From Nitrospirales bacterium (lineage in GTDB: Bacteria; Nitrospirota; Nitrospiria; Nitrospirales; UBA8639), in assembly GCA_963555755.3 (NCBI GenBank), contig OY820905.2:3072001-3136000 (forward strand): a DNA stretch of 64,000 nt, read 5' to 3'. Each line of letters begins with the position of its first letter. Position 1 is the first letter of the stretch. Under the pieces are notes generated by a model. It made no database searches and was not told the DNA's origin. It saw only the letters and a program-made list of their open reading frames with translations. Below, one piece after another: positions 1,750 through 61,557 of this stretch. A program made the position numbers and the translations under genes.

Positions 1750-2070
1750 CCCCGCGTTGGGCGCAGCGGAGCCACAGTCCCGAATCGACTTTTTTGGCGA
1801 AGGCTGTTTGAGCGGAGCGAGTTCCTGAGCCATGTGATTCGGGGCGGAGGCGGAGGCACCCGGAGGAGAAGAGACAAGAATCTCCGCCAGCAGCGTTCTC
1901 GTTGCTTGTAACCCTCAACGTACTAAATGTACGCCTCGGATTACTCGCTGCCTGCGGCCTTGCTGGCGAAGATTCTTGACTCTTCTCTGGAGGGCTGCGC
2001 ACAGGCAAAAATGGTTTTGGACACTTTTGCCGAAACAAAAGTGTCTCGTCGCGCGGGGACGAAACCCCGC
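1750..2070 (+). repeat. Dispersed repeat family A, copy 1 (contains a nested MITE at 1866-1987)
   Basis: Shares ggctgtttgagcggagcgagttcc...tggttttgg-cttttgccgaaacaaaag...gaaaccccgc with copies at 13029, 14623 and 59186/60001. Confidence 0.85.
1866..1987. mobile_element. MITE nested in repeat A1
   Basis: TIR gagaagagacaagaatct / agattcttgactcttctc; imperfect 5-bp duplication cggag/tggag; absent from the other A copies. Confidence 0.75.
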
Positions 2071-2083
2071 AAAGATAAAAATT

Positions 2084-13025: not shown

Positions 13026-13028
13026 GTA

Positions 13029-13268
13029 GCAGGGTTTCGCCCCCGCGCGACGAGGCCCTTTTGTTTCGGCAAAAGGGACCAAAACCATTTCCGCCCGTGC
13101 GCGTCCCTGCGGGTGAACTCCGCCCCGGCACCGAATTATATGGCTGCGCAACTCGCTCCGAGGTGCAAAGCCACCTCTCCGCTCAAACAATGCTCGCCGA
13201 ATAGTCGAATTCGGTACTAGCCTTCGCCAAGAGACCGATTCAGGCCGGAGGCTCCGCCGCGCTCAACG
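13029..13268 (-). repeat. Dispersed repeat family A, copy 2
   Basis: Reverse-orientation match: cttttgtttcggcaaaagggaccaaaaccat...aactcgctcc...ctccgctcaaaca. Confidence 0.85.
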
Positions 13269-14622: not shown

Positions 14623-14822
14623 TTCCTCCGCCTTCGGGCGCGGCTTTGCCGCGGAATCAAATTCGACCATTCTGGTGAGGGCTGTTTGAGCGGAGCGAGT
14701 TCCCGAGCCATATAATTTGGTTTCGTGGCAAAGCCTACCCGTAGGGGCCGCGCCCGGGCGAGAATGGTTTTGGTCCCTTTTGCCGAAACAAAAGGGACTC
14801 GTCGGCGGGGGCGAAACCCCGC
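14623..14822 (+). repeat. Dispersed repeat family A, copy 3
   Basis: gggctgtttgagcggagcgagttcccgagcc...tggttttggtcccttttgccgaaacaaaaggg...gaaaccccgc. Confidence 0.85.
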
Positions 14823-14829
14823 ATAAAGG

Positions 14830-49380: not shown

Positions 49381-49733
49381 GGGGGTGACTGGCTTCGACG
49401 GGGAACAAGAGGTCAACGGTGCGTGTCGAGCTCTCGGAGTCTCGTAAAACCTTCGGGAAACATATAATTGCCAACGAACCATTGGCTCTCGCAGCTTAAT
49501 TGACTGCGACGTCTCTCCATTCTCTGTCTGCGGGCATGGAAGAGGCGCTACTTTAGCAGGCTGGTCCAATGCTGGTGCTCCAGCGGCTGCGGATGAGACC
49601 TTTCTGGGCTAGCGAACGCTCTAAGCCGGTCAGTGGGCGTGGGCGGACGCGAATTTTAAAACATTGACTACACACGTAGGACCATTGTGCTGAATGTCTT
49701 CGGACGCGGGTTCAAATCCCGCCACCTCCACCA
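49381..49733 (+). ncRNA. ssrA: tmRNA, tag peptide (A)ANEPLALAA
   Basis: GGGGGTGA...TTCGAC 5' end, tag ORF 49470-49499, T arm GGTTCAAATCC, 3' end CACCTCCACCA. Confidence 0.97.
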
Positions 49734-50888: not shown

Positions 50889-51640
50889 TTCAGCCCTTGG
50901 ATCGAACACGGTCCAAGGGCTTCTATATTGACCAGACCTGAGCCAAAACCTTCAGAAATTAAAACGATTCACCGATAAAGATAGATTATGCCTTCCCATT
51001 TAACTAAGGTTGCTTCAGTTTATTGAATCCCAAGGGTTTTGAGCTGCTGGTCAGGATTTTCAACAAACTCTGGAAGGTACTCATTGGAGTCTCACGGCGG
51101 TTATAGCGAAAGACAAACTCATCAAGATAGTGTTGCAGGTATTTTGAATCCACTCCATGGTGAATCCCGTTCAGCCAGGTCTGCAGATTGCCGAACGCTC
51201 TATGGATGTGTGGAGCGTGCTTCCCAGCACTTGCTGGGTCACCCTGGGTCCGTCTCAGGTGTTCGTATCCTGCCAAGGCTTTTGCCGAGTATCCCTTCCA
51301 ACCATCGGACTTGATCTTACTGCCCTCAGCGACATGGCTATTGAGGAATGCTTTGATCTCGTTCTCTCCAGCGTCTTGAAGAATCGCTAATCGTAAACGC
51401 CCTGCTTTCTCTCGAAAGTGATCCCCTTGTGTGTACGTGACAATTTCTACGGCTCCGGCTATTAACGTCTTGGTTTTCGCTTTCGCGACGCCACGGCCCG
51501 TTTTGCCTTTTACCGGTCCACCGATATGGGTTTCATCGGCTTCAACTGTTCCTGCGAGCCGTTCACGGTTCTGTCGTACCATTCCTCGTCGCAATCTGTG
51601 GAGCAAATACCAGGCGCTTGATACTGAGTTGACGCTGCAA
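50889..51640. repeat. Tandem duplicate of 51641-~52406, including a truncated IS1595 transposase (51004-51606)
   Basis: Near-identical direct repeat offset by 752 bp, with 3-bp and 11-bp deletions. Confidence 0.9.
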
Positions 51641-51741
51641 TTCAGCCCTTGGATCGAACACGGTCCAAGGGCTTCTATATTGACCAGACCTGAGCCAAAA
51701 CCTTCAGAAATTAAAACGATTCACCTTAGATAAAGATAGAT

Positions 51742-52753
51742 TATGCCTTCCCATTTAACTAAGGTTGCTTCAGTTTATTGAATCCCAAGGGTTTTGAGCT
51801 GCTGGTCAGGATTTTCAACAAACTCTGGAAGGTACTCATTGGAGTCTCACGGCGGTTATAGCGAAAGACAAACTCATCAAGATAGTGTTGCAGGTATTTT
51901 GAATCCACTCCATGGTGAATCCCGTTCAGCCAGGTCTGCAGATTGCCGAACGCTCTATGGATGTGTGGAGCGTGCTTCCCAGCACTTGCTGGGTCACCCT
52001 GGGTCCGTCTCAGGTGTTCGTATCCTGCCAAGGCTTTTGCCGAGTATCCCTTCCAACCATCGGACTTGATCTTACTGCCCTCAGCGACATGGCTATTGAG
52101 GAATGCTTTGATCTCGTTCTCTCCAGCGTCTTGAAGAATCGCTAATCGTAAACGCCCTGCTTTCTCTCGAAAGTGATCCCCTTGTGTGTACGTGACAATT
52201 TCTACGGCTCCGGCTATTAACGTCTTGGTTTTCGCTTTCGCGACGCCACGGCCCGTTTTGCCTTTTACCGGTCCACCGATATGGGTTTCATCGGCTTCAA
52301 CTGTTCCTGCGAGCCGTTCACGGTTCTGTCGTACCATTCCTCGTCGCAATCTGTGGAGCAAATACCAGGCGCTATCCACCTTCTTGATACTGAGTTGACG
52401 CTGCAATTGCACAGCACTGATGCCAGGTGTGTGCGTGGAGACGAAATAGGCAGCCCAAAACCAAAGCCGTAGCGGCAAGTGCGATCTATGCATCACTGTG
52501 CCGCTTAGCGGTGATGTCTGTCTATGACACGACGAACACTCAAACCGGAAATATTTTTTGAGCCACCAACCACCGCGATGACCGCAAGCTGGACACATAA
52601 ACCCGTCTGGCCACCGAATCGCCCGCAAGTACTCGAAGCACGCTTCTTCGGTGTGGAACCTAACAGAAAAATCCAAGATATCAGCAGCATACCCTGTGTC
52701 CATAGTCCAGCAGACTAGTCTAGGGACTAACCTTAGTCAAATGGGAAGGCATA
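51742..52753 (-). mobile_element. IS1595-family insertion sequence (1012 bp)
   Basis: TIR TATGCCTTCCCATTT(A/G)ACTAAGGTT; 8-bp TSD AGATAGAT. Confidence 0.92.
51759..52703 (-). CDS. IS1595-family transposase
   Basis: RWPDGFMCPAC, VEADETHIGG, SDGWKGY, YLDEFVFRYNRR. Confidence 0.95.
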   Translation of the reverse strand: MDTGYAADILDFSVRFHTEEACFEYLRAIRWPDGFMCPACGHRGGWWLKKYFRFECSSCHRQTSPLSGTVMHRSHLPLRLWFWAAYFVSTHTPGISAVQLQRQLSIKKVDSAWYLLHRLRRGMVRQNRERLAGTVEADETHIGGPVKGKTGRGVAKAKTKTLIAGAVEIVTYTQGDHFREKAGRLRLAILQDAGENEIKAFLNSHVAEGSKIKSDGWKGYSAKALAGYEHLRRTQGDPASAGKHAPHIHRAFGNLQTWLNGIHHGVDSKYLQHYLDEFVFRYNRRETPMSTFQSLLKILTSSSKPLGFNKLKQP

Positions 52754-59185: not shown

Positions 59186-60058
59186 TCATGCCTTGGGCTC
59201 GGCGGAGCTGGAGTACCGAATCGCCTTTTTGGCGAGGGCTGTTTGAGCGGAGAGGTGGCTTTGCACCTCGGAGCGAGTTCCCGAGCCATCTATTCGGTGC
59301 GGAGGCGGAGGGACCCGTAGGGACGCGCACGGGCAAAACAATCGACATAGGTAGGCGGTCACCCGCTTTCCCTGTCACACCACCGTACGTACGGGTCCGT
59401 ATACGGCGGTTTGGTGGGTTAAGCGATTGGCCACCAGGAGAGACTTCTCTCAACTGGTCACCCCTCGCCGGGCTTTCAACTGGGCGGTTCGCCGCGAGCG
59501 ATTCGACACTTCCTCGTCAGTCCTTAGGGCTTCACCCCTATCCTCTGTCGGGAAGGCCAGGGTTAACTGGTTATTCAGCCGCTTGTCGCTCGTGAGTTCC
59601 GCTGCCTACATACCACTCCGCACCGTTCAGGCCTTCGTCCCTGCCGGGACTACTATGCCCTCTGCTGACTCCTCTCACCCGGTCAAGATAGATCACTCCA
59701 TCCTCAGTCTTGGTGCCAAGACAGACGAGAGGTCTCCCGAGGTAAGCTCAACCGCCTTCAGCGCACGACCGCCAGATTTACACCCAATGCCCTTGATGGA
59801 TATGGACTTCGTGAAAACCAGCTCACTCGTCCGACACTGACTGCCTCGTATCTGGTTCTTGTTCATCGGCCCGCGCCTTTGCTCTACGCTTCCTTCAGAC
59901 CCCGCCTCACGACGACGCCCTTGCGCTTCGCTATGACTTCACCTCCATCAGGTTGTCAAAGGGACTTGCACCCTCAAGCTGTTGAACATGCTCGGCACAC
60001 TGGTTTTGGGCACTTTTGCCGAAACAAAAGTGCCTCGTCTGCAGGGGCGAAACCCTGC
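59186..60058 (+). repeat. Dispersed repeat family A, copy 4, split by a group II intron (59186-59340 plus 60001-60058)
   Basis: The halves rejoin as gggcaaaaca|tggttttgggcacttttgccgaaacaaaagtgcc. Confidence 0.85.
59341..60000 (-). mobile_element. ORF-less group IIC intron (660 nt)
   Basis: 5' GTGTGCCGAGCATG; DV AACCGCCGTATACGGACCCGTACGTACGGTGGTGTG; DVI and 3' end ...CCTATGTCGAT; no RT ORF. Confidence 0.9.
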
Positions 60059-60173
60059 ATATAAATCCAAACCTGGATTCCCGATTAAAAATGTCGGGAA
60101 TGACCGATGGGGGGCTGATAGGCAGTTTACTTTGGTCTCGACTCTTAGATTACAAACGCTTTTGTCGCCTTCC

Positions 60174-60203
60174 TTGACACTATTTTCCCCCACTCCCTAG
60201 AAT
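60174..60203 (+). promoter_or_regulatory. Probable promoter of the trmFO operon
   Basis: TTGACA-18 bp-TAGAAT. Confidence 0.6.
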
Positions 60204-60240: not shown

Positions 60241-61557
60241 ATGCGCGATGATGTGGTCATAATTGGTGGCGGGCTGGCGGGGTCGGAGGCGGCTTGGCAG
60301 GCGGCGGAGCGTGGGGCGAAGGTCACGCTTTATGAGATGCGACCAAAGAAAGAGACGGCGGCACACAAGACGAGCAATTTGGCTGAGATTGTGTGTTCGA
60401 ATTCTTTGGGATCCGCTGACCCGATTAGCGCACCTGGCATCTTGAAAGAAGAGATGCGGCTGTTGAACTCACTGGTCATGCGAGTGGCTGAATTGGCTCG
60501 AGTGCCGGCTGGCGCCGCGCTGGCGGTTGATCGCGATATCTTTGCACAAGAAATTACGAGAACGTTGGAATCGCATCCGAATATTCGGATCATTCGTGAA
60601 GAGATTCGAGAGATTCCGACTGATGCTCTTTGCATCGTGGCCACGGGGCCTTTGACGTCGGAAAGTTTGGCGCAGGCTTTGACCGAGTTGACGCATAAAA
60701 AGAACCTGGCCTTCTTTGATGCCATTTCCCCAATCATCGATGCGGAATCCATTGATATGGACAAGGCCTTTCGTGCCTCACGCTATGATAAGGGCGGCGC
60801 GGATTATGTGAATTGTCCGATGGATGAAGCCACGTATACGGCCTTTTACGATGCGTTAATGGCGGGAGAAAAAGTCGAATCCAAGGACTTTGAGAAAGTC
60901 CCGTACTTCGAAGGGTGCATCCCGATTGAAGTCATGGCAGAACGCGGGAAGCAGACCTTAACCTTTGGTCCGATGAAACCCGTGGGGCTGGTTGATCCGC
61001 GCACTGGCACACGACCGCATGCGGTGCTGCAATTGCGTGCGGAAAATCGGTACGGTTCGTGTTATAACATGGTGGGGTTTCAAACCAAGTTAAAGTATCC
61101 TGAGCAGCAGCGGGTGTTTCGCATGATCCCCGGTCTTGAGCGGGCCGAGTTTCTGCGGTTTGGGAGTGTGCATCGAAATACGTTTGTGAATTCTCCTGAG
61201 CTCTTGCGGAATACCCTGCAGTTGAAAATGCGAGGGACAACCTTTTTGGCGGGATGTATTATTGGGGTTGAGGGATATACTGAATCCGCGGCAAGCGGAG
61301 GTTTGGCTGGAATCAATGCCGCTCGTGCGTTGGCTGATTTACCCTTGATCACTCCTCCGTTGGCTACGGCACATGGGGCGTTGATCAATTATATTACCAC
61401 GAGTGATGCTCGGTATTTCCAGCCAATGAATACCAACTTTGGAATCTTTCCGCCGCTTCCCACGAAGATTCGCGACAAGGAACAGAAACGGCGCTTGATT
61501 CACCAACGTGCGATGGATGAGTTTCAAGCATGGAAGACGCAATTCGCGCTTTCCTAA
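60241..61557 (+). CDS. trmFO: tRNA (uracil-54)-methyltransferase TrmFO
   Basis: IGGGLAGSEAAWQ, AEIVCSNS, FGPMKPVGL, GFQTKL, HRNTF, GVEGY. Confidence 0.97.
   Translation: MRDDVVIIGGGLAGSEAAWQAAERGAKVTLYEMRPKKETAAHKTSNLAEIVCSNSLGSADPISAPGILKEEMRLLNSLVMRVAELARVPAGAALAVDRDIFAQEITRTLESHPNIRIIREEIREIPTDALCIVATGPLTSESLAQALTELTHKKNLAFFDAISPIIDAESIDMDKAFRASRYDKGGADYVNCPMDEATYTAFYDALMAGEKVESKDFEKVPYFEGCIPIEVMAERGKQTLTFGPMKPVGLVDPRTGTRPHAVLQLRAENRYGSCYNMVGFQTKLKYPEQQRVFRMIPGLERAEFLRFGSVHRNTFVNSPELLRNTLQLKMRGTTFLAGCIIGVEGYTESAASGGLAGINAARALADLPLITPPLATAHGALINYITTSDARYFQPMNTNFGIFPPLPTKIRDKEQKRRLIHQRAMDEFQAWKTQFALS

Follow-up and report, generated by a model that had tools for sequence, protein, structure and literature searches.

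A group IIC intron family, largely devoid of reading frames, behind the hairpin of a dispersed Nitrospirales repeat and probably mobilised in trans

The question raised by this locus is how a group II intron that encodes no protein came to lie at a precise position inside a dispersed chromosomal repeat, and by what agency it and its kin were spread. Bacterial ORF-less group II introns have been described as uncommon and as having, with few exceptions, a related IEP alongside them, and the targets of IIC introns are given as terminators or attC sites, at least in the sections of the review literature cited here (PMC4424553). The window, i.e. the whole stretch of 64,000 nucleotides that was analysed, belongs to the 4.62-Mb genome of a Nitrospirales bacterium (the source genome, G000), and the original prediction for it was that of a non-autonomous intron with a multicopy repeat as its renewable target and an RT supplied in trans.

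The ORF-less group IIC intron, recognised by its ends, by Rfam and by an alignment fold, comprises six domains and 660 nt (59341..60000, minus strand). Its termini, GTGTG at the 5' end and AT at the 3' end, are those of group II introns (GUGYG/AY), and the minus-strand element of 660 nt that had been read from the window, with intact ends and a CGC triad in its domain V/VI region, was recovered exactly at 60000..59341. Three Rfam families match within it, namely group-II-D1D4-3, D1D4-1 and Intron_gpII (RF02001, RF01998 and RF00029; 134, 54 and 42 bits, respectively), and these cover domains I-IV as well as V-VI. Class C, or IIC, is marked by a short domain V with a CGC triad, and the window intron has a 32-nt domain V with CGC. 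All domains being on the minus strand, domain I (59737..59995; Rfam and consensus fold) bears the EBS1 loop GCUGGUUU (59815..59822), within which EBS1 reads UGGU at 59820-59817; domain II (59667..59736; consensus fold and covariation) forms two arms with compensatory changes; domain III (59629..59660) is placed by Rfam and consensus fold; domain IV (59413..59625) is a long covarying arm that overlaps the start of a remnant ORF (ACG at 59593); domain V (59379..59410) is again placed by Rfam and consensus fold; and domain VI (59343..59377; consensus fold) has a bulged A eight bases before the 3' end. As class C requires, an EBS2 arm is absent from the consensus fold of the ORF-less copies.

The single-sequence fold of the window intron gives a z of only -1.96, and the fold of an alignment was used in its place. 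The alignment consists of 17 ORF-less copies, five from the source genome and 12 from metagenome loci, and folds into the six canonical domains with 198 pairs, of whose cells 98.2% are paired (34-43% in slid controls); 68 of the 198 pairs show double changes, where shuffles give 14.5 (0/500) and slid controls 6-12, comparisons that flatter the fold, the structure having been derived from the same alignment and the rows being kin. Domains I-III, whose ability to fold had been at issue, do so with covariation. The window copy carries a private G-to-A change just before domain V, where 16 of the 17 rows have G, a point against the explanation favoured below.

No RT reading frame is present inside the 660 nt. 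About 1.2 kb of the RT gene is absent at a deletion junction in domain IV (59433..59458, minus strand), closed by an ACCAG/CTGGT stem that is already found in the parent intron described below. The stretch QLTLAF....RGEA had been taken for a decayed trace of a protein's N-terminus; it is present, but it is not just decayed, for it corresponds to the first ~47 codons of the parent ORF and matches residues 2-27 of the intact parent protein at 92% identity. In the 17 aligned copies, the start of this remnant ORF folds as a conserved, covarying domain IV arm, and the arm retains compensatory changes among the ORF-less rows. The long arm of the window intron is likely the IEP-binding DIVa.

Upstream on the intron strand, the 5' exon (60001..60063, minus) is the left part of the repeat, here called repeat A, and includes a small terminal hairpin, the target hairpin and a spacer. 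The target hairpin (60009..60034, minus) has an 11-bp stem and a TTCG loop and ends 8 nt before the insertion, and the intervening spacer CAAAACCA (60001-60008, minus; 8 nt) ends in the IBS1 ACCA (60001..60004, minus), to which EBS1 UGGU is complementary; hairpin and spacer are those originally described. The 3' exon (59190..59340, minus) is the rest of repeat A, its first base being T at the IBS3 position. When the exons are joined in silico, a dispersed repeat of ~200 nt is restored, and the insertion lies exactly within it, as had been claimed, along with three empty copies that indeed lie in the window at 1754..2073 (minus; longer than the ~200-nt consensus), 13027..13218 (plus) and 14631..14827 (minus). 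The hairpin pattern has three matches in the window (two empty copies and the intron's own exon), with 0.00 by chance in 100 shuffles. The target hairpin was rejected as an intrinsic terminator, as it has no T run and is not terminator-like on either strand.

Across the source genome, repeat A gives 136 HMM hits, 105 of which cover the site; among the 88 of these that were parsed (17 were left unparsed), 80 end in AAAACCA and six are occupied, and T follows at the IBS3 position in 74 of 82 empty sites. A crude scan for hairpins, with a rough coding mask and a recovery of 5/6 occupied 5' junctions, found 99 non-coding hairpin+ACCA/T sites outside repeat A, only three of them with AAACCA, and 55 empty non-coding hairpin+AAACCA/T sites inside it, so that the repeat supplies most of the good safe sites. 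The pattern of hairpin plus AAAACCA is present, with 1 to 96 hits each, in 23 of the 61 genomes that were searched, all from the family of the window, and the intron was matched in 8 of the 61. Searches of Rfam returned nothing meaningful for repeat A, its flanks show no clear TIR or TSD, and none of the 17 Y1_Tnp matches in the source genome is clearly flanked by it. Copies of repeat A persist at orthologous positions across genomes, with flanks 68-95% alike; the view of the repeat as a renewable target holds as to the multicopy target, the same base being used in all copies of the source genome, and its renewal is at most conceivable.

Several further features of repeat A were observed. It is sometimes reduced to the left hairpin alone (C1:2773022, 2198302, 2433451 and 3763745 in the source genome, and locus L144 in genome G002), and at least one such solo hairpin sits where a relative carries the whole repeat; the remainder of the repeat seems to come and go as one module. 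It also houses a DDE element and small palindromes. The 2.58-kb element L258, which encodes a DruA + DDE_Tnp_1 protein, is present at C1:1962171-1964770 of the source genome and in 11 further copies, 99.8-100% alike, and of these 12, seven are inside repeat A or abut it, four at the same central palindrome; the repeat is a landing site common to the intron and this element. An empty element resembling repeat A in an assembly titled Rhodanobacteraceae (L184:2150-2270, minus) hints that the repeat family extends beyond Nitrospirales.

A BLAST search of the source genome with inspection of flanks recovered five full intron copies, 93.5-97.3% alike, together with two stubs, a 3' one and a 5' one of 45 nt. 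All five full copies and both stubs are at the same base of repeat A and not at unrelated sites, contrary to a one-off relic, and none interrupts a recognised gene. Two copies depart from the rest: at C1:1014762 the EBS1 is AUGG and does not stand in register with the insertion site, and the copy at C1:3779209 has parent-type patches, yet also the shared deletion junction. Since the copies are mosaic in this way, recombination also shapes them. Five of the seven copies are in one replication orientation against a background of 36/86, a strand bias that is not significant. At the window locus, five genomes of the same genus have only degenerate left ends of repeat A or a contig end, and the window copy therefore has no clean empty site.

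The source genome is unusually rich in introns, with nested and tandem arrangements, and holds other structures of note. Beside a 679-nt copy, an otherwise empty repeat A has eight extra bases at the insertion site (C1:~3780422-3780429) that resemble the intron 3' end and are possibly the scar of an imprecise intron loss. A class C-like intron with EBS1 GCCA and a frameshifted ORF, 44% identical to the protein of the parent L056 (L259; C1:3614223-3616205), lies behind a hairpin that belongs to another repeat, present in ~20 copies; repeat A in antisense orientation forms the intron's 3' flank, and so the locus looks rearranged. Another family is represented by two group II introns of ~800 nt without an ORF (C1:~317625-318455 and ~491207-492008), both apparently within transposase-like genes.

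Metagenomes were scanned with the intron's 5' motif, which yielded 77 matches at 76 loci, 47 following repeat A and 30 not, many of them being contig ends or duplicates from a single data set. One locus, L056, is an intact parent of 1,888 nt with repeat A for both exons and the same repeat site, and is the RT-encoding full-length relative that had been looked for. Its ORF of 459 aa, with YADD, is a group II RT/maturase (TIGR04416, 399 bits) in which no endonuclease domain was found, and the GsI-IIC RT of class C is its best PDB match, over residues 48-456 (E 2e-137); it is L056, not the window copy, that encodes the cognate class C IEP. The four IEPs from repeat sites group together in a single clade (100/100), and the relatives around it lie behind hairpins that are terminator-like or of other kinds. 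A second deletion junction occurs within the repeat clade (L098, L108), and ORF-less forms of sister lineages have junctions of their own (L037, L061); the domain IV arm is kept in all of these. Close relatives are also found behind unrelated hairpins (L060, L067, L106 and L233), and the targeting of repeat A is a preference, not an absolute rule. Sister introns at L013, L020, L030, L132 and L060 lie behind other hairpins with matching EBS1, and these hairpins presumably resemble IS200/IS605-type ends.

The source genome has 35 RT matches, in eight clusters, and 35 domain V/VI matches. Among the RT matches there is no intact cognate IEP, the best being 44% identical to the parent protein and frameshifted, and the resident RTs were rejected as the cognate helper, none exceeding that identity; cross-mobilisation by resident non-cognate RTs is conceivable. 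The last 162 nt of L056 recur with 99.4% identity in the 3' stub (C1:1016805-1016644), a parent remnant that adjoins an IS256-family (PF00872) transposase. To judge from this arrangement, a helper intron was once resident in the source genome and was then destroyed. With the parent cut by the IS256-family element, the five copies have probably been left stranded, and mobilisation in trans in this genome is likely past.

Other genomes supply what the source genome has lost. A junction scan with one genome per species found 83 stretches, and among the 80 listed, 58 are in 10 assemblies titled Nitrospirales, Nitrospirota, Nitrospiria or Nitrospiraceae, one is in an assembly titled Alphaproteobacteria, and 21 were dropped as chance (intron alignment <=25 nt; 0 group II matches among the 19 checked in Rfam). 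The ORF-less family is common to at least 10 Nitrospirales/Nitrospirota assemblies, and its deletion junction is shared across genomes. The related Nitrospirales genome G431 has 41 intron starts at 34 sites, 32 of these at the canonical base and two behind another hairpin, the one checked being antisense within repeat A. At least 31 of its copies are ORF-less and 660 nt long, against three with a 415-aa open RT frame, and several are stacked in tandem; it is here that the predicted supply of an RT in trans is best seen, whereas the corresponding gene of the source genome is destroyed. The frame opens only from the second ATG, a position equal to the GsI-IIC N-terminus, with no obvious ribosome-binding site before it. 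The 24 ORF-less first copies, 94-100% alike, form a clade of their own (98 SH-like) apart from the three IEP copies, and identical introns occur in different exon contexts. Over 89 repeat pattern hits, with the origin taken from the skew of 20 sampled stretches, filled repeats are 27/49 in the leading-strand orientation vs 4/40 in the other (Fisher p 6.5e-6; p 0.044 with the worst origin placement, as late as 4.5 Mb). The tandem stacks and the replication-orientation bias argue for retrohoming in trans rather than gene conversion. Genome G432 has 15 intron starts, mostly ORF-less, and six sites that are filled in relatives are empty repeats in the source genome (L046, L078, L065, L066, L070 and L062).

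The pairing between intron and target varies in concert. Besides UGGU-ACCA, the combinations AUGG-CCAT and CUGG-CCAG occur, both inserting one base further, and sister lineages have UAGA-TCTA and AACG-CGTT; some rows have a one-base EBS1/IBS1 mismatch. From the EBS1 loop GC-UGGU-UU, the pairing could possibly stretch over AAACCA for 6-7 bp. The IBS1 of IIC-attC introns, by comparison, is TTGT.

Contigs of four RNA runs cover parts of the intron, and contigs cannot show splicing. Ligated exons of the window locus had no joint matches in these contigs, and the intron-skipping joints present were rejected as splicing, having other letters and deriving from empty repeat copies. Four runs of DNA or unrecorded kind contained no empty allele of the locus. 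The intron is antisense to and upstream of trmFO (60241..61557, plus), a neighbour that is read away from it and has a sigma-70-like site nearby (60174-60203, plus); no promoter co-oriented with the intron was found. Elsewhere the window holds an rRNA operon (20184-25427), a tmRNA (49381-49733) and, at 50889-52703, a duplicated 300-385-nt segment with a transposase-like ORF.

Taken as a whole, the family is probably best explained by a class C intron that lost an inner portion of its RT gene and has spread as a non-autonomous retroelement by means of a co-resident parent's maturase/RT, retrohoming behind the hairpin of the repeat. The parent's IEP would bind the retained domain IV arm of the 660-nt mini-intron and splice it, and the spliced RNA would be reverse-spliced into single-stranded DNA at replication forks. 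Recognition of the target would be by shape for the hairpin and by base pairing for ACCA/T, as in the E. rectale IIC structure, and repeat A would be favoured because it supplies most of the non-coding hairpin+AAACCA/T sites. The IS256-family element that cut the parent has likely left the source-genome copies stranded. It is, on the other hand, unlikely that full-length introns homed and that the ORF-less copies, never mobile themselves, arose later in place by recombination or gene conversion with a deleted copy already there. The mosaic source-genome copies lend this some weight, above all the one at C1:3779209, which is 96.4% identical to the parent over the first 576 nt and has a parent-type 18-nt insertion although it also has the shared junction; however, the separate clade of ORF-less first copies in G431, identical ORF-less pairs at different sites, ORF-less copies stacked together in tandem and the compensatory changes in the domain IV arm of ORF-less rows all speak for copies that moved as such.

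Passive spread, by gene conversion between repeat copies or by a repeat that transposes with the intron aboard, is very unlikely. Repeat A does have ~100 copies in the source genome, its pattern hits vary between 0 and 96 per genome within the family, and Y1 transposase matches are present, but the exons of occupied sites retain their own variants, repeats that are filled in one genome have empty orthologues in another, and introns stand in tandem or behind unrelated hairpins with matching IBS1; the bias of filled over empty repeats with replication orientation in G431 largely refutes it. It is scarcely credible that the mini-intron serves the host as a domesticated RNA, a regulatory ribozyme for instance, and is retained on that account, even with a structure conserved across Nitrospirales and with contigs of one RNA library, though possibly DNA, covering the intron, as positions differ between genomes, copy number runs from none found to >30, EBS1 tracks the target and no source-genome copy interrupts a recognised gene. 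Beyond retrohoming in trans, we lean slightly towards a broader proposal, namely that the clade has specialised on a dispersed Nitrospirales repeat, as IIC-attC introns have on attC, by a retuned and lengthened EBS1 pairing, and that its ORF-less derivatives may be SINE-like hyperparasites that outnumber their helper ~10:1, have arisen more than once with nothing but the maturase-binding arm retained, and can leave a genome stranded with RT-less ribozymes.

Each part of this picture has its counterpart among known systems, as far as the portions of the papers cited here describe them. In the E. rectale IIC structure, D4a is the high-affinity maturase site and the target consists of a DNA stem of 9-12 bp followed by a spacer, an IBS1 of 4 nt and an IBS3 of 1 nt (PMC10190682); the window target is built alike, with an 11-bp stem, an 8-nt spacer ending in ACCA, and then T. 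Terminator-homing IIC introns (B.h.I1, O.i.I1 and GsI-IIC) likewise combine a IIC ribozyme, an En-minus class C IEP and a target of stem, spacer and IBS1/IBS3, but the present target is one conserved hairpin of a dispersed repeat without a T run, EBS1 has been retuned to fit ACCA, the pairing possibly extending to 6-7 bp, and most copies are ORF-less. Class C introns are reported to be biased to the lagging-strand template (PMC8919778, citing Robart 2007), and the orientation bias in G431 is that same bias. They are described as hidden behind terminators in PMC7306698, the relevant passages of which make no mention of repeats. IIC-attC introns (PMC4424553, PMC3001079) are similarly a class C sub-lineage specialised on multicopy non-terminator hairpins; unlike theirs, the target here is a chromosomal dispersed repeat with IBS1 ACCA, and no integron context was seen.

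The closest parallel to the ORF-less state is in Thermosynechococcus elongatus, where 17 ORF-less IIB1 introns are driven in trans (PMC2882425; also PMC8643678 and PMC2504315). Both systems have one deletion (DIVb in T. elongatus), N- and C-terminal ORF remnants, a driver IEP in trans (a probable one in the present family), ORF-less copies in excess of ORF-containing ones, and EBS divergence that opens new sites; the T. elongatus introns are IIB1/CL, confined to one genome and experimentally tested, whereas the repeat A family is IIC, is spread over at least 10 assemblies, is tied to one repeat and is known from sequence alone (PMC2882425, in the portions cited). A shared ORF deletion, a retained DIVa, several sites and a fit of EBS to IBS, the hallmarks of the T. 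elongatus type, are all found in the present family, with the C1:1014762 copy as the exception, and a related intact IEP is present in the same genome in G431 (the 415-aa frame, three copies), the source genome having a remnant only. IS elements that target REP sequences also use a multicopy extragenic palindrome as a landing site, but they are DNA transposons and the repeat A intron is a retroelement (PMC1525189, as far as cited). The literature consulted contained no description of repeat A or of a repeat-homing ORF-less IIC family; precedents are possible in Mohr 2018 (GsI-IIC), Simon 2008, and Leon and Roy 2009.

Since each ingredient has a precedent, the finding extends rather than overturns the known picture. 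Repeat A would be a third, non-terminator multicopy target favoured by a IIC lineage, and in one genome a protein-less form has reached >30 copies, oriented with the kind of bias that retrohoming should produce. A natural test set, made up of a single IEP, a ribozyme of 660 nt, variants of EBS1 and orthologous sites both filled and empty, bears on shape versus base pairing in IIC targeting and on the action of IIC maturases in trans; if the proposal is true, the natural EBS1 variants with their one-base shift of insertion make both targeting and trans-mobilisation directly testable. The proliferation of a protein-less intron is also the step that has been invoked for the origin of spliceosomal introns.
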